A stretch of 64,000 bases of DNA, taken from NCBI GenBank assembly GCA_963774325.1, contig CAVZEF010000004.1, forward strand, positions 222,958-286,957. Reading direction: 5' to 3'. This DNA comes from an uncultured Pseudomonadota bacterium (lineage in GTDB: Bacteria > Myxococcota_A > Polyangia > Fen-1088). The position numbers and the translations under genes were made by a program. The notes under the pieces are model-generated. The model saw nothing but the letters and a program-made list of their open reading frames with translations. It made no database searches and had not been told where the DNA came from. Positions 22,129 to 28,064 of this stretch are shown here, one piece after another (positions within the stretch are counted from its first letter, which is position 1; every line of letters starts with the position of its first letter).

Positions 22129-23370
22129 TCAAGTGGTGCGAATTCGCCGTTTCTTGCGCGTTCGGAGCGCGCCAGGCGTGATTCCCAATCGTTGGCGAAA
22201 CACCGCGCCCATGTACTCCTGATGGCGAAAGCCAGCTCGTTCGGCGATCTCGATCAATGGCAGGTCAGTCTCTTGCAGCAATTGGCGTGCGCGGCTGAGC
22301 CGTACCCGGATGATCTCGTCGTGGATGCTTCGCCCGAGCAGGTCGCGGAACAGGCGCTGCAACACGCTGCGCGAGATGGGCACCGTTCGCACGACGTCAT
22401 CCACCTCGATCTCCTCGCAGGCATGCTCGCGGATGAAGCGCAGCGACCGGGCCACATTGCGGTCGTCGACGGCCAACGAGTCCGTCGAGACGCGGGCGTG
22501 GATACCCTTGGGGGGCAGCAGAATCGGAGCCACGGGGGGCGAGCCCTGGTGCATCAACGAGTCGAGCAGCCGCGCCGCCTCGTAACCAACCTGACGGTGG
22601 CTGGGCCACACGCTCGACAGAGGTGGGTCACTCACCTCGCACAGCGGTTCGTCATTGTCGACCCCGACCACCCCCACGTCGTCCGGCACGATGATGCCGT
22701 TGCTGCGACACGCTTCCAGGGTGTGCGGGCCGAGCTGGTCGGAAGCAATCATCAAGCCCGTCGGCCTGGACAGACCGACCAACCACGCAGCCAGCTCCGG
22801 CCCGCTGTCTTCCCAGCTCTCCTGCCGAGCGGTTTGACGGGACACGAAGTGAGTTTCACAAGGAAACCCCGCGTCGCCGACCCGTCTGGCAAAGGCCAGA
22901 GCCCGCCTGTCGGACCAGTTTTCGCCACGGATTCCCAGGAAGGCAAAGCGGCGATAGCCTTGATCCAGCAGATGCTCGGCGCCGACCTGTCCGATGGCCT
23001 GGTCGTCGACGTGGACGATGGGGAATGGCAACCCATCCACAACGCCCAGCACGTCGATGGTGGGAACACCCGCCATCGCGATGGCGCGCGCCACCCGCGG
23101 GTTCTGGACCCGCGCGATGATTCCGTCGCCGCGCCATCCCCTCAGCCAGCGCGGGACCGATTGCTCCAGCGAGCGCGGCTCGTGCGCGATTGACCAGGGC
23201 CCCTCCTCACGCAGGTAACTCGCGATACCGCGCAGGATCTCCCGTCCCGGCGCCAGCGACGTCTCGATGATCAGAGCGACTCGCTTGCGACCGGGCGTGG
23301 GAAGGACACGAGGAAGCGGGCGGCGCACGGCCGCGTGAGCGTAAGCGACTTCGGTGGCCTCAATCGTCAT
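22129..23370 (-). CDS. XylR-type regulator (periplasmic-binding-like domain + AraC HTH)
   Basis: GREILRGIA, WRGDGIIAR, VGAEHLL, VPDDVGVVGVDND, PPLSSV, C-terminal AraC (IRLFIREHAC-like helix, LIEIAERAGF...FRQRLGITPG). Confidence 0.9.
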   Translation of the reverse strand: MTIEATEVAYAHAAVRRPLPRVLPTPGRKRVALIIETSLAPGREILRGIASYLREEGPWSIAHEPRSLEQSVPRWLRGWRGDGIIARVQNPRVARAIAMAGVPTIDVLGVVDGLPFPIVHVDDQAIGQVGAEHLLDQGYRRFAFLGIRGENWSDRRALAFARRVGDAGFPCETHFVSRQTARQESWEDSGPELAAWLVGLSRPTGLMIASDQLGPHTLEACRSNGIIVPDDVGVVGVDNDEPLCEVSDPPLSSVWPSHRQVGYEAARLLDSLMHQGSPPVAPILLPPKGIHARVSTDSLAVDDRNVARSLRFIREHACEEIEVDDVVRTVPISRSVLQRLFRDLLGRSIHDEIIRVRLSRARQLLQETDLPLIEIAERAGFRHQEYMGAVFRQRLGITPGALRTRKKRRIRTT

Positions 23371-23555
23371 GTTGCCGGCTTTCTACAAAGATTGCTGTGA
23401 ACCCTCTAAGCAAGCCTCGAAGAACGATCAATCGGCGAGCGACTATTACGTGTGATCCAGAGGTCTTGGAGTCCAGATGCGCCGATGGTGGCAAATGCTC
23501 TCAATGCGCCATTGATGGCACCGAGCGGTCTCTTTGACGGCTGATTCCGTATTGC

Positions 23556-24695
23556 ATGACCTGTCGGCGATCTTTGGTCTGTGCTACCCAATGGCGCATG
23601 ACTCAGCATCCACGACATGACGCTCGGACGGTGGGACGCTGGATGAGGTTCGGAGCGGCAATTCTTTTCGCGGTCTCGGGTTGCGCGGGGGCAGCAACGG
23701 GCTCGCCAGCGGCAAGCGGGGGCGCGAGCGGCTCCGGTGGCGCGAACGGAGCCGGAGGTGCGGCGGCGACTGGAGGCTCGGGGGCCGGCGGCCTTGCTGC
23801 TGGCGCAGGCGGAGCCGTGGCCGGAACCGGTGGCAACGCCCTGGACGCGGGCAGCGACGCGGGACTGGGCGCAAGGACGGATGGGGGCATGGGCGGTGCG
23901 GCAGGGTCGGGTGCCGGAGGAGGCGCCGGTGGGCTCGGTGGTGCCGCGGGAACGACCAACTGCGCCGGTCATGCGGTCGCTTTCAACGCGAACGTCCCCG
24001 GCAACAACGATCCGGCGATGGCGCGTGTGATGGTCGACTTCATGAACAGCGCCGACCTGCCGATCGGGAACGCCAACCGGACCATCGAGCTCTGGGCGTT
24101 CGTCAGGACCTCGAGCTGGGTAGGCGACGCCAACACGCTGTTCTTCTACGGCACCAACAATCGCGTCGCCGACGGGTTCGGTCTCGACTTCGGCGGGGTC
24201 CCGGGAACCATCGATCCGTTCACGAACGCGATCTTCGACAACGACAATCAGCCGAGCGGGCTCGGCACCTCCAGCGACCAGTGGGCGCACTTCGCCATGA
24301 CGTGGGACGGCACCACCGTTCGGGCATTCGTCAACGGGGTGGAGAAGGCGAGCAAAACCTCGACCGTCGCACAGAAGACGCTGATGACGGGGCGTACGCC
24401 GCTGACGATCGGAGGCTATGCCCCCGCATTCTTCAACGGCTACATCGATGAGCTCCGGGTCTGGAACGTGGCCCGCGCGGCGGCCGACATCGCCCGCACG
24501 ATGCATACGACGCTGGCCGGCAGCGAGCCGGGACTGGTCGGCTACTGGAAGTTCGACGAGAGCAGCGGCACCACCGCCGCCGATTCCACGTCCGCCGCCG
24601 GTCATACGCCGCACCCGGGCGTGTTGATGGCGAATAGCATCGGCAACTTGCCGGCATTCGTTGTCTCGACGGCGCCGATCAGCTGTATTCCATGA
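23556..24695 (+). CDS. LamG/concanavalin-like domain lipoprotein
   Basis: AVSG-C lipobox, linker, RTIELW, WAHFAMTWDG...FVNG, FNGYIDELRVWN, GLVGYWKFDE; start may be later. Confidence 0.8.
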   Translation: MTCRRSLVCATQWRMTQHPRHDARTVGRWMRFGAAILFAVSGCAGAATGSPAASGGASGSGGANGAGGAAATGGSGAGGLAAGAGGAVAGTGGNALDAGSDAGLGARTDGGMGGAAGSGAGGGAGGLGGAAGTTNCAGHAVAFNANVPGNNDPAMARVMVDFMNSADLPIGNANRTIELWAFVRTSSWVGDANTLFFYGTNNRVADGFGLDFGGVPGTIDPFTNAIFDNDNQPSGLGTSSDQWAHFAMTWDGTTVRAFVNGVEKASKTSTVAQKTLMTGRTPLTIGGYAPAFFNGYIDELRVWNVARAAADIARTMHTTLAGSEPGLVGYWKFDESSGTTAADSTSAAGHTPHPGVLMANSIGNLPAFVVSTAPISCIP

Positions 24696-25166
24696 CCTCC
24701 ACGCGCGGGCACGAATCATCCCTCATGTACAAGGGAGGCCCTCCGTCAAACCGGTACACGAAATCGAGGCGTGCTTCCGCGCATGGCGGTTCGCGTCGTG
24801 CGATGTAATTTTTTTGCGGGGGAAATCCTCAGAGATCACCGGTGCATCGATTCTCTTCACCGCGCGCTTCAACGTGCGACCAAACAAATTCACCCTTGAC
24901 TGTGTCAACGCAAAAGATCACCCTGATTGGGCAATGACAAGGTTGTGCACATGGTCGATTTGCCGGACGGGATGCGAATCCCTTCGGGCGGTCGTGTGCG
25001 TGCGTTTGGCCGGTCGCCAGGGTCAAAAGCACACCCCCGGATCAGTCCCGTGCTCGTATTCCCAAGAGTCCGGGACCTTGAATTTTGGGGATAGCACCGG
25101 CGATAGCAATATCGCTATGGGGTGGCCAATCGGGTAGCTCGAACTGACTGTTCGCAGCCCGAGACG

Positions 25167-25195
25167 AGGCCGCCCCCCAAAAGGGCGGCCTTTTT
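25167..25195 (+). terminator. Intrinsic terminator 10 nt upstream of the tRNA array
   Basis: AGGCCGCCC-cccaaaa-GGGCGGCCT followed by TTTT. Confidence 0.75.
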
Positions 25196-25204
25196 GCGTT
25201 TCTG

Positions 25205-25283
25205 GCCTCTCGCGCTGGGACGCAACGGTGCCTGTAAAGCACTGGCCCTTGGGGTTTGCCTGGTTCGATTCCAGGGAGGGGCA
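25205..25283 (+). tRNA. trnY: tRNA-Tyr(GTA), shortened D-arm, no encoded CCA
   Basis: Acceptor GCCTCTC/GAGGGGC, loop CTGTAAA, long variable arm, T-arm CCTGG-TTCGATT-CCAGG. Confidence 0.8.
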
Positions 25284-25331
25284 CGACTGCCTGAAGCCGA
25301 GGAGAACGACGAATGACAGACGGCCAATTGC

Positions 25332-25401
25332 TCGGGGATCGCTAATGGCAGGCAAACCGCCTTTGAAGCGGTTGGTTGAGGTTCGAATCCTCATCCCCGA
25401 A
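25332..25401 (+). tRNA. trnQ: tRNA-Gln(TTG), no encoded CCA
   Basis: Acceptor TCGGGGA/TCCCCGA, ACCGC-CTTTGAA-GCGGT, TGAGG-TTCGAAT-CCTCA. Confidence 0.88.
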
Positions 25402-25405
25402 CGCC

Positions 25406-25436
25406 TGGCGCTCGCGACGCCACTGATCTTTGACAA
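25406..25436 (+). promoter_or_regulatory. boxB-like hairpin + boxA-like antitermination site
   Basis: TGGCG-ctcgcga-CGCCA then CTGATCTTTGACAA, resembling rrn boxA. Confidence 0.55.
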
Positions 25437-25491
25437 CCAAATAGTCGACGTGAAGGAGGCGGGACGCCATTCCCGCCGACATCGCCAATAC

Positions 25492-25564
25492 GCCCTCGGC
25501 GAATGGATCGCGGCCAGCGCTACGAACGCAGGCTTCGGAGGTTCGAGTCCTCTCGGGGGTACCA
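25492..25564 (+). tRNA. trnR: tRNA-Arg(ACG) with CCA
   Basis: Acceptor GCCCTCG/CGGGGGT, loop CTACGAA, GGAGG-TTCGAGT-CCTCT; atypical D-arm connector. Confidence 0.82.
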
Positions 25565-25565
25565 C

Positions 25566-25634
25566 GCCGGCGAGCTTCGGCAGCCCGGCGCCCTCATGAG
25601 GCGCGCGGAGATGGTTCGACTCCCTCCGCCGGTA
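25566..25634 (+). tRNA. tRNA with CAT anticodon (Met or Ile2), degenerate, 69 nt
   Basis: Acceptor GCCGGCG/CGCCGGT, GCGCC-CTCATGA-GGCGC, T-loop TTCGACT with one stem mismatch. Confidence 0.65.
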
Positions 25635-25648
25635 CGGCACGCACGCAC

Positions 25649-25722
25649 GCACGATTGTCCGAGCGGATAGGACCCGGTCTTCCAAACCGGAGAGGCGAGT
25701 TCGACTCTCGCATCGTGCTCCA
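25649..25722 (+). tRNA. trnG: tRNA-Gly(TCC) with CCA
   Basis: GCACGAT/ATCGTGC, CCGGT-CTTCCAA-ACCGG, GCGAG-TTCGACT-CTCGC, T-CCA. Confidence 0.92.
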
Positions 25723-25729
25723 AGCAGAA

Positions 25730-25798
25730 GGCCGCCGCGGCTGCTGGTTGCTCCGCCGGGACTGGGGGTCCCGGCGTTCCAGCGGAAGGGCGGCGGCC
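25730..25798 (+). other. Long nested stem-loop between tRNA-Gly and tRNA-Thr
   Basis: GGCCGCCGC/GCGGCGGCC, CTGCTGG/CCAGCGG and CGCCGGGAC/GTCCCGGCG nested pairings. Confidence 0.55.
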
Positions 25799-25806
25799 GA
25801 ACACGT

Positions 25807-25881
25807 GCCCTCGAAGCGTTGCTGGCGACGCGCCGGTTCCGTAAACCGGAGAACGCGGTTCGATTCCGCGCGGGGGCTCCA
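25807..25881 (+). tRNA. trnT: tRNA-Thr(CGT) with CCA (C33 instead of U33)
   Basis: GCCCTCG/CGGGGGC, D stem GCGT/ACGC, CCGGT-TCCGTAA-ACCGG, CGCGG-TTCGATT-CCGCG. Confidence 0.85.
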
Positions 25882-25882
25882 T

Positions 25883-25958
25883 TCCAGGGTGGCAGATCGG
25901 TTCATGCGCTCGCCTGTTGAGCGAGACGAGGCAGGTTCGATTCCTGCTCCTGGAGCCA
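25883..25958 (+). tRNA. trnN: tRNA-Asn(GTT) with CCA
   Basis: TCCAGGG/TCCTGGA, CTCGC-CTGTTGA-GCGAG, GCAGG-TTCGATT-CCTGC, G73. Confidence 0.92.
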
Positions 25959-25989
25959 CGCGCCCGCCGGTTCGCCGGCCGTACTTTCT

Positions 25990-26064
25990 GCTCACGTACG
26001 CATCTGGTGAGGCGGGCCGGTTGTCTCCCGGCTGAGAGGAGTTCGATTCTCCCCGTGGGCGCCA
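25990..26064 (+). tRNA. trnD: tRNA-Asp(GTC) with CCA (pyrimidine at 37)
   Basis: GCTCACG/CGTGGGC, GCCGG-TTGTCTC-CCGGC, T-loop TTCGATT, G73. Confidence 0.87.
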
Positions 26065-26092
26065 CCGCCTTTTTTTCGTTCGTCAGTGCAAC

Positions 26093-26166
26093 TGGCCCGT
26101 AGCTCAACGGGTAGAGGCAGACCGCTCAAGTCGGTCGGGTTGCGGGTTCGAATCCCGCCGGGCCAA
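26093..26166 (+). tRNA. trnL: tRNA with CAA anticodon (Leu) but short variable loop
   Basis: TGGCCCG/CGGGCCA, TA-GCTC D-arm, GACCG-CTCAAGT-CGGTC, 5-nt variable loop, GCGGG-TTCGAAT-CCCGC. Confidence 0.8.
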
Positions 26167-26184
26167 CAACCAAGGAGATCCGTC

Positions 26185-26459
26185 ATGTCCGCCGCCGCCG
26201 TCCTGTTCCTGGATGCGCAATACCGTCCCCTTCGCGTCGAACCCTGGCAGCGAGCGATCGCCGACTTCTTCCTCGGCAAGGTCGAGGTGGTGGCGTACAG
26301 CCGCGATCGGACCATCCAGGGAGTCGACCGCCAGCTGGTCTCACGCTGGCATCGAGACCCATCAAGCCACGCTACTTGCCCGCCGTCACCGTTCGGATCG
26401 GCCGGGGCTCGATCCCGGAGGAGTGGAGGCCGTACTGGTCGACGACGATCGATGCCTGA
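26185..26459 (+). pseudogene. HNH endonuclease remnant with internal deletion of the nuclease core
   Basis: AAGGAG RBS. N-terminus VLFLDAQYRPLRVEPWQRAIADFFLGKVEVV; after a frame change AGLTLASRPIKPRYLPAVTV...IPEEWRPYW-stop. No CxxC/HNH motifs in between. Confidence 0.7.
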
Positions 26460-26517
26460 AGCCTCTGCACCCGACCGTCACGTCGACTCGCGACCCGCGG
26501 CAGCGTAGGTTGTTGCG

Positions 26518-27336
26518 ATGGCCCTGCGCAGCGTCTTCCTGGACGAGCTGGCGATCGACGACGAACGCTCGTTCGCGCATGTCGCGCTCTACGGCCGCCT
26601 CAAAGAGGCGCTGATCCGTTCGCGGCACCGGTTCTGCATTCCGCAGGCGGACACGCAGCTCGGCTGGGACCGGGCGCTGTTTCTGAACCTGACGTACTGG
26701 AACAGCGAGGCGAGCACAGACGTGCTGTGCGACCGGAGCATCCCGGCAGACGTCGTCGCGCACGTGGCGTGGCATCACCTGGTAGGCCAGGAGCTCGGCC
26801 GGCGAGCCGCAGCCGTCACGGAGGCGGGCTCACCGGTGCCGCCGTCGGCGGCGGCGTTGTTCTTCGCTGAATCAATCGCCAGCGCGTTCGATCTCTATCT
26901 CGTGGGCCGCTTGATCCCGAACGCGCCGGATTCGGGCTTCGTCACGACGCAGGTGCCGCTGATGGCGGAGCGCGCGCAGGAGGCGGGCTTGTCAGAGACG
27001 GCGTTCGCGGCTTTGCTCGAAGACGTCACTGCCGAGCCGGAGCGCGCGTTCGAGGACATGCGCGCCCTGCTCCTGGACACGGCCGGCGCGCTGCTGATCT
27101 GCCGCGGAGCCGAGGAGGCGGAGGCCGCGCTCGCCAGCTTCGACGGCCACCGCTTCGCGCCCCTGCTGCACCACTTCGAGCTGTCGAACTGGATCCTCTA
27201 CGCGCGCGCCTATGCGCCCCCGCCCTCGCGCCCCGACCCCGTGGTGCAACCGCTGGACGCGCTCCTCCGCAGCGCCCCCGTCGCGCTCGACTGGCTCGCC
27301 GACAACTGCATCGACGCGGCCCACGAGCGCCCGTAG
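26518..27336 (+). CDS. Hypothetical protein (helical; HVAWHH...E motif)
   Basis: 272-aa ORF with coding-like codon usage. Confidence 0.75.
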   Translation: MALRSVFLDELAIDDERSFAHVALYGRLKEALIRSRHRFCIPQADTQLGWDRALFLNLTYWNSEASTDVLCDRSIPADVVAHVAWHHLVGQELGRRAAAVTEAGSPVPPSAAALFFAESIASAFDLYLVGRLIPNAPDSGFVTTQVPLMAERAQEAGLSETAFAALLEDVTAEPERAFEDMRALLLDTAGALLICRGAEEAEAALASFDGHRFAPLLHHFELSNWILYARAYAPPPSRPDPVVQPLDALLRSAPVALDWLADNCIDAAHERP

Positions 27337-27433
27337 ACGGGCGGCGCCGGCGCCGGTCGAGCGCTCGGATGGGGGCATCGCGGAAGAGGACGGGCTGCTC
27401 GTAGCCGTGACGCCGGTTGATGCCGCCGAGCCT

Positions 27434-27745
27434 TCATCGGTTGGCGGGCGCGCCTTCGCCCTCCAGATCCTTTTCGATGCGCCGCATGTGCTGCTCCTGC
27501 TGGTGCTCCACTTCCTGGCGAACCCGGTCGGGCGTCACCTGCTGATCCGGATGGGTAAAGGCGGCGCTCTTGCGCGTGTCGTAGCAGCGCTGCGCGAGAC
27601 AAGCCCACCCGTCGTCGCAGTCCTGGTTGGACGCGCAGGCCTTCGGCGCCGGTGCTTCATGCGGCTTCGCGCGCGGGCAGGCCGCCGCGCCGAGCGCCGC
27701 CGCGAGGACCAACGAGACCAGGAGCGCGCTGGGCCGAGACGTCAC
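27434..27745 (-). CDS. Small Cys-motif lipoprotein
   Basis: LGAAA-C lipobox, CASNQDCDDGWACLAQRC. Confidence 0.7.
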   Translation of the reverse strand: MTSRPSALLVSLVLAAALGAAACPRAKPHEAPAPKACASNQDCDDGWACLAQRCYDTRKSAAFTHPDQQVTPDRVRQEVEHQQEQHMRRIEKDLEGEGAPANR

Positions 27746-28064
27746 GTGCGCGATTTTATCGGACGGCGACGGCGATTGGCAAACCGGCCGTCGGTTTTGT
27801 GAACCGAGGAGCAGCAGCTAGTTAGAAACCATGCTCTGCTCCGCATAGGTGATCGACGTCATGCGGAGCTTTGCCACCTGTGCGATATCGGGCTCGCGCT
27901 CTGGCGTCGATCTTCTTCCATCTCGCCTCGCCCACGATGCCGTGCTCGGTCAGCTTCCGCGCGACGTGCTGCTAGTGTCCTGTCTCAGAAATCCGCCTGC
28001 ATTCGGGCGCGCCTGCGGCCCGCTCGCTTCGTTGCTCGTCGCTTACGCTGGCGCTTCACGGTGA

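Follow-up and report, generated by a model that had tools for sequence, protein, structure and literature searches.

How can a tight array of nine tRNA genes be transcribed when an intrinsic terminator ends directly in front of it, and under which circumstances would it be read? The locus that raises this question lies in the 64,000-nt stretch of DNA analysed here (hereafter the window), which belongs to an assembly of 8.57 Mb in six contigs with a G+C content of 69% and a completeness of 78%. The first tRNA begins 10 nt past the T-run of the terminator, which leaves no room for a promoter of its own, and the array is thus transcribable only through the terminator. To our knowledge, it is largely unknown how horizontally acquired tRNA arrays are kept silent in bacteria and at what times they are used, Anabaena being the one studied case. 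We argue here that the interval 24896-25204 (Table 1) is likely to be a ribosome-mediated (leader-peptide) transcription attenuator that gates this accessory tRNA array.

Table 1. Features of the leader, the tRNA array and their surroundings, in window positions.
Feature	Position	Strand	Source or remark
LamG-type secreted protein gene	23556-24695	+	gene 5' of the leader
Terminator-like hairpin and T7 run	24780-24815 (hairpin 24780-24802)	+	terminator scan; 85 nt past the LamG-type gene
Predicted -35 element, TTGACT	24896-24901	+	comparison of leaders
Predicted -10 element, CACCCT (family consensus CAnnnT)	24919-24924	+	17 nt 3' of the -35 element
Leader ORF, 67 codons and TAG (MTRLCTW...NIAMGWPIG*)	24934-25137	+	homologous frame open in 22/22 leaders with a promoter
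Early hairpin inside the leader ORF	24947-24999 (core 24960-24991, loop GCGA)	+	candidate RNA-polymerase pause hairpin
X, antiterminator 5' strand, GGGGTGGCC	25119-25127	+	pairs with Y; equivalent of attenuator region 2
Inner hairpin enclosed by X:Y	25130-25162	+	contains the leader stop codon TAG, 25135-37
Intrinsic terminator hairpin	25166-25192	+	terminator scan; 5' arm holds Y
Y, terminator 5' arm segment, GGCCGCCCC	25168-25176	+	9 pairs with X, one of them U-G
Z, terminator 3' arm	25183-25190	+	pairs with Y
T-run	25191-25195	+	3' of the terminator stem
Conserved tail, GCGTTTCTG	25196-25204	+	between T-run and first tRNA
Nine-tRNA array	25205-26167	+	ARAGORN; predicted regulated cargo

The array comprises, in this order, Tyr-GTA, Gln-TTG, Arg-ACG, Met-CAT, Gly-TCC, Thr-CGT, Asn-GTT, Asp-GTC and Leu-CAA, packed into 963 nt; the Rfam tRNA threshold is passed by five of them. 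Arrays of 12-30 tRNAs stand behind this leader in relatives, the shared gene order being Tyr-Lys-Lys-Gln-Phe, and so on. The gene order in the window is a subset of that found in these arrays of up to 30 tRNAs, and the window array looks like a reduced copy of them. The tRNA-Gln(UUG) at 25332-25402 is the sole copy in the assembly, in which the other tRNA-Gln has the anticodon CUG; since the assembly is only 78% complete, a housekeeping tRNA-Gln(UUG) may simply be missing from it. The tRNA-Leu genes called by ARAGORN in the arrays (26093-26167 in the window, as well as those of L033, L038, L048 and others) are nearly all 74-81 nt long, two being 84-85 nt, and most of them thus do not have the long variable arm that is usual in bacteria.

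As to the surroundings, the interval 24696-25204 shows no third-position G+C bias and has a lower G+C content than its flanks, and in both respects it is unlike ordinary coding sequence. The terminator-like hairpin near its left end probably shields the leader promoter against transcription that arrives from the LamG-type gene side. Downstream of the array lies a core gene, which is located elsewhere in the genomes of relatives; the left flank of genome G001 is not syntenic and contains no tRNAs, and comparison of synteny and empty sites with congeners did not yield a clean insertion boundary of the array.

An earlier reading of the letters alone (the sequence-only reading) had proposed that a 9-bp pairing of X with Y, closed around an inner hairpin, competes with the terminator. 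All of these elements are indeed present at the positions given there, and the antiterminator is both the minimum-energy and the centroid fold of 25117-25200 (-41.4 kcal/mol, z = -2.95; 4 of 200 shuffles fold as well), the terminator hairpin alone amounting to -20.3 kcal/mol. When X is masked, or a ribosome footprint is placed at the stop codon, the minimum-energy fold of the window sequence flips from the antiterminator (-43.2 kcal/mol) to the terminator. The window holds an ORF in the leader, an intrinsic terminator before the genes, an antiterminator that is mutually exclusive with it and a suitably placed stop codon, which are among the features by which leader-peptide attenuators are recognised. 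In the window alone, however, the complementarity is suggestive and not decisive, as a 9-bp stretch complementary to the terminator arm also turned up, in the 100 nt that precede the arm, in 54 of 5000 dinucleotide shuffles; the weight of the pairing evidence comes from its conservation in 30 further leaders.

These leaders were collected as follows. A DNA query with the whole array retrieved long tRNA arrays in the same family, and the leader plus the first two tRNAs, used as a DNA query against 60 relatives, gave tRNA-Gln matches only. Alignment of the regions upstream of the relatives' first tRNA revealed a shared element composed of X, inner hairpin, Y, loop, Z and T-run, followed by GCGTTTCTGG, and the covariance models R1 and R2 that were built from the aligned leaders served to collect homologues. 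This yielded 31 non-redundant leaders, all in Myxococcota MAGs of the class Polyangia. Within the family the distribution is patchy: the leader occurs in 23 of 89 genomes, including that of the window, and in none of four congeners. Among 401 genomes sampled from the class, it is also carried by five that belong to four other families. When the 185,579 bacterial and archaeal species of the genome_contigs collection were scanned with a strict Y-loop-Z pattern, it matched 17 times, exclusively in Myxococcota MAGs (Polyangia, Kofleriaceae, Polyangiaceae).

In 28 of the 31 cases tRNA genes or arrays follow on the same strand within 0-564 nt. In two of the other families the cargo is a single tRNA gene, His-GTG in L083 (G313, a Polyangiaceae MAG) and Arg-ACG in L088 (G224). 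Of the remaining three leaders, one is at a contig end, L089 precedes an AAA_33 P-loop kinase gene, which was not found near other arrays, and L100 precedes an ABC-2 exporter operon. In this last case (L100:1696-4370, Kofleriaceae MAG SMAG_U9370), a 28-codon leader ORF ending in PWRGG-stop lies directly before genes for a DrrA-like ATPase (ABC_tran) and two permeases, with no tRNAs.

Further peculiarities of the relatives deserve a record. One array (G022:C246) is preceded by two tandem leader/terminator units, L050:1376-1459 and L050:1607-1691. Most relatives have, past the terminator, a GGAGG-N6-ATG that is absent from the window and opens a short ORF (MQAGSY..., MEPKSYSGSPSGER...); this ORF, seen in L044, L045, L039, L038, L043, L034, L037, L040, L047 and L046, often has Tyr as codon 6 or 7 and continues into tRNA-Tyr. 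At its start it is similar to the N-terminus of the L089 kinase (L089:3484-4014, - strand), and it may be that the arrays were inserted behind what was once the start of a kinase gene.

Both competing helices are conserved across this collection. In an alignment that was itself fitted to X:Y, and in which many leaders are closely related, so that the counts are inflated, 87.7% of the X:Y cells of the 31 leaders are paired, whereas sliding the partners by 1-3 columns leaves 28-57% paired; both sides have changed in five of the nine pairs (15 cells), and the covariation score lies above those of all 500 shuffles. The Y:Z helix was predicted by RNAalifold from the 31 leaders with no structure supplied, likewise with compensatory changes, its closing pair being AU in 16, GC in 10, GU in 3 and CG in 2 leaders. 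Some substitutions in Y are mirrored in its partner strands: where Y reads GCCACCC (L084, L085), a matching U is found in X (GGGU.GC) and in Z (GGUGGC), and where it reads GGCUGCCC (L042, L046), X has a matching A. Covariation in orthologous leaders was one of the checks that the sequence-only reading had called for. Another, co-transcriptional folding, came out in the same sense: when nascent RNA was folded to the end of Y, all of the 27 leaders formed X:Y with the inner hairpin inside it, the hairpin being always there and variable in both sequence and loop, and when the full-length RNAs of the same leaders were folded, most adopted the terminator. For two sequences, those of the window and L042, the minimum-energy fold remains the antiterminator even at full length, so that termination would there hinge wholly on masking by the ribosome.

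Every family leader has, some 200 nt 5' of X, a promoter-like block in which an A-rich stretch is followed by an invariant TTGAC and, after a spacer of 17 nt, by CAnnnT. The pattern TTGAC-N17-CAnnnT was located in the leaders by script, and in each of the 22 leaders whose promoter is recognisable TTGAC occupies the same position; a relaxed form of the pattern was mis-sited in L038, L046, L088 and L103, the first two of which were correctly assigned by a separate scan. Across the 15 sequences of alignment A5 the TTG is invariant, the C, the A and the final T of the -10 element are also conserved, and no obvious repeats are seen in the promoter. A generic sigma-70 scan of 23500-27500 called no promoters, and it missed the predicted one because its -10 element, CACCCT, is non-canonical. 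The start site is predicted near 24931-24934.

Past the promoter, an open reading frame begins almost at once. Its ATG at 24934 lies 9 nt past the -10 element, and across the 22 leaders an ATG or GTG is conserved 9-12 nt past it, with no Shine-Dalgarno sequence between the -10 element and the start codon in the leader alignment; the transcript is thus probably leaderless. GTG, a weak start on leaderless RNA in E. coli, is used in two of the 22. Two leaders of the other families have AGGAG or AAGGA followed by ATG in place of the leaderless start, and in the other-family leaders open frames of at least 55 codons end at X.

The ORF comes in 15 distinct lengths (28-67 codons) among the 22 leaders with a promoter and its frame is open in every one of them, which means that all length differences are multiples of three. 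By our own estimate, at least 14 frame-preserving length changes would arise by chance with a probability of about 3^-14. Counted together, the two alternative frames of these stretches contain about 60 stops, a contrast tempered by the fact that the window frame is open from 24661 onwards, that few stops occur in the +2 frame of many leaders and that long chance open frames are to be expected in a genome so rich in G+C (69%). The end of the ORF is fixed as well. Its stop codon lies 30-34 nt 5' of Y in 22 of 22 leaders, be it in X, directly after it or up to 8 nt past its 3' end; a stop directly after X reads GGC GGC TAA/TAG/TGA, and window-type leaders stop 6-8 nt later. The encoded peptides are poorly conserved, with some groups sharing an MLIVRQ-like start and a WRGG-like end, the latter being X read as codons.

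In the window, the leader ORF has a GC3 of 0.69 versus 0.91 in the long ORFs and coding sequences of the genome, and 14 of its 67 codons are rare. The ORF shows no enrichment of the codons that the nine array tRNAs can read (22 of 67, versus 27% in the coding sequences of the genome, p = 0.27), and the hallmark of trp- and his-type attenuators is thus missing. Nearly all leaders, when folded one by one, form a strong tetraloop hairpin some 30-65 nt past the start codon, whose arms differ from leader to leader (GGGAU/AUCCC, GCCGC/GCGGC, ACCGC/GCGGU, GGCC/GGCC); RNAalifold on MAFFT-aligned leader ORFs was uninformative.

A promoter, an ORF and a terminator make up a complete transcription unit by themselves, and one could therefore imagine that the terminator simply ends a small gene or an sRNA transcribed from the conserved promoter, that the array is read by leak-through or from an unrecognised promoter and that X:Y is merely structural. 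Between terminator and first tRNA some relatives have 300-560 nt, in which another promoter would find room; in the window and L042, however, the first tRNA lies within 10 nt of the T-run, where none would. Moreover, it is the frame and the position of the stop codon that are conserved and not the peptides, and Y has stayed complementary to two partners through three-way compensatory changes. Given also that the unit is always accompanied by cargo downstream on the same strand, we regard this explanation as improbable.

The proposal that a translating ribosome sets the switch can instead be spelled out as a sequence of events. Transcription would start from TTGACT-N17-CACCCT, near 24931-24934, and the RNA would open almost directly with the AUG of the 67-codon leader ORF, so that a ribosome could load once the 5' end emerges. 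The early hairpin at 24947-24999 may then, by analogy with the trp leader, pause RNA polymerase and allow the ribosome to catch up. A ribosome that keeps pace would reach the stop codon at 25135-37 and cover X while Y and Z are being made; with X covered, Y and Z would pair, the terminator would form and the array would stay silent. If, on the other hand, translation were slow, stalled or absent, X would be free as Y emerges, X:Y would form first, and the polymerase would read through and make the tRNAs. As no particular codons are enriched, the leader would sense the overall speed of decoding rather than the supply of one amino acid. Since no conserved region 1 was found in the leaders, absence of translation is also predicted to result in read-through. 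This is in essence the switch logic of the sequence-only reading, of which the masking of X by a ribosome in favour of the terminator is supported by the conserved X:Y and Y:Z helices and by the ORF end at X, and of which only the identity of the sensing ORF has had to be replaced.

Many leaders with alternative terminator and antiterminator structures are operated by something other than a ribosome, and the choice between X:Y and Y:Z could likewise be set by a trans-acting factor, be it an antiterminator protein, an uncharged tRNA as in T-box leaders or a small molecule, the open frame being incidental. The G-rich X (often GGAGGGGCGGC) could conceivably bind a protein or the anti-Shine-Dalgarno sequence of 16S rRNA. 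We give this view little credence on several grounds. An Rfam scan (cmscan, E <= 1) of 23000-28000 returned only tRNA-related and chance matches, none of them in 24696-25204 and none to the T-box or any other riboswitch family. The freely varying inner hairpin and its loop speak against a conserved aptamer or specifier and, together with the lack of an Rfam T-box match, place the leader outside the T-box class. No regulator gene is conserved beside the arrays, the window array being flanked by the LamG-like protein gene and the core gene. A frame kept over 15 length classes with its stop fixed at X would also be left unexplained by a trans-acting factor.

Even less probable, in our opinion, is that a G+C-rich mobile sequence with a strong terminator has given rise to open frame and alternative pairing incidentally and would serve solely to insulate the array from upstream transcription. 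Chance ORFs are common at 69% G+C and, as noted, about 1% of the shuffles of the window alone yield the 9-bp complement; yet the same architecture persists through extensive sequence turnover in at least five families, a pure insulator would silence the array permanently, and it would need no dedicated conserved promoter 200 nt upstream aimed at the array. Finally, the 6-codon frame that the sequence-only reading had taken for the sensor (ATG 25117-19, then GGG TGG CCA ATC GGG TAG, MGWPIG*) was correctly placed, has both a start and a stop codon and overlaps X, but it can safely be set aside, as its ATG is unique to the window (30 other leaders have GGA, GAG, AGG and so on there), is preceded by no Shine-Dalgarno sequence and merely opens the in-frame 3' tail of the conserved 67-codon ORF.

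Between tRNA-Gln and tRNA-Arg of the window array, at 25427-25436 (+ strand), there is a boxA-like 10-mer, TCTTTGACAA (context CTGATCTTTGACAACCAAATAGTCGACG), for which 0.03 chance matches are expected in the window, and the same 10-mer is found near the 5' end and on the array strand of seven more non-redundant arrays (L037, L039, L040, L087, L091, L092 and L103). It suggests rrn-type Nus antitermination after the polymerase has moved past the attenuator.

If a ribosome-coupled attenuator indeed governs these arrays, it would provide a direct and self-contained feedback in which slow decoding leads to the making of tRNAs, and it would extend leader-peptide attenuation from genes for enzymes and transporters to the translation machinery's own substrates. 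More tentatively, and with rather less confidence than we have in the attenuator itself, it can be speculated that Polyangia possess a portable translation-speed sensor cassette, consisting of a promoter, a leaderless test ORF and an antiterminator/terminator, that has been placed before various rescue cargoes and thereby defines a translation-stress regulon. Its cargoes would be mostly back-up tRNA sets, and also the polynucleotide-kinase-like P-loop kinase and the ABC exporter, which by analogy with BmrB-bmrCD (PMC4191407) are the types of cargo that one would expect of a translation-stress switch. Such a regulon would counter tRNA-cleaving toxins, ribosome-targeting antibiotics of competitors or phage attack with fresh tRNAs, and it would represent the first attenuator in which the ribosome gauges overall decoding capacity and tRNA itself is the output. 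The element is short, sharply defined and available in many variants, which makes the hypothesis directly testable with reporters, and covariance model R2 offers a search handle for translation-stress-controlled genes in Myxococcota.

How does this leader compare with what has been described before? In agreement with the sequence-only reading, which knew of no such switch on a tRNA array, a full-text literature search returned no paper in which tRNA arrays are connected to attenuation, leader peptides, antiterminators or myxobacteria. What would be new is a leader-peptide attenuator with an accessory tRNA array as its cargo, conserved across Polyangia; the switch logic itself is classical. In the attenuators of amino-acid operons (trpL, hisL, leuL, thrL, pheL, ilv), whose leader peptides have 14-32 codons, a ribosome that has arrived at the stop codon hides region 2, with termination by 3:4 as the result, and a lagging ribosome permits 2:3 to form. 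The Polyangia leader shares with them (see also PMC1183508) the leader ORF, a possible pause hairpin, regions 2 (X), 3 (Y) and 4 (Z) and the U-tract. Unlike them, it has a longer ORF (28-69 codons) with no cluster of cognate codons and no identified conserved region 1, and its output would be tRNAs and not biosynthetic enzymes.

With regard to the cargo, the arrays resemble the so-called L-arrays (PMC8421152; surveys PMC4758250 and PMC5966550) in being supernumerary, patchily distributed and densely packed tRNA genes with a shared order, although with nine genes the window array is small when set against the definition of an L-array as a horizontally spread group of about 20 or more tRNAs (PMC8421152). 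The trn operon of Anabaena sp. PCC 7120, an L-array, is silent and is induced by translation inhibitors or translational stress (PMC8421152), and this is by analogy the very response that the Polyangia leader would produce. Its control is attributed to direct repeats that overlap the promoter and presumably form a repressor site, and neither this paper (PMC8421152) nor the tRNA-array survey (PMC4758250) mentions a terminator, attenuator or leader.

The closest functional analogue is, in our view, BmrB-bmrCD of Bacillus subtilis (PMC4191407), in which a leader peptide and three alternative stem-loops, including an intrinsic terminator, respond to ribosome-targeting antibiotics by induction, and in which rare codons influence the read-through decision. 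The two have in common a longish leader ORF in which no single regulatory codon is repeated in a run, a set of alternative stem-loops with an intrinsic terminator among them, and read-through upon impaired translation, which for the Polyangia leader is a prediction; even the transporter cargo of BmrB-bmrCD has a counterpart in the one relative, L100, that precedes an ABC exporter operon. They differ in that the Polyangia leader has no sequence relationship with BmrB-bmrCD, belongs to another phylum and is predicted to start leaderless, and in that its stop codon is set at the antiterminator strand itself and its usual cargo is tRNA genes rather than a transporter.
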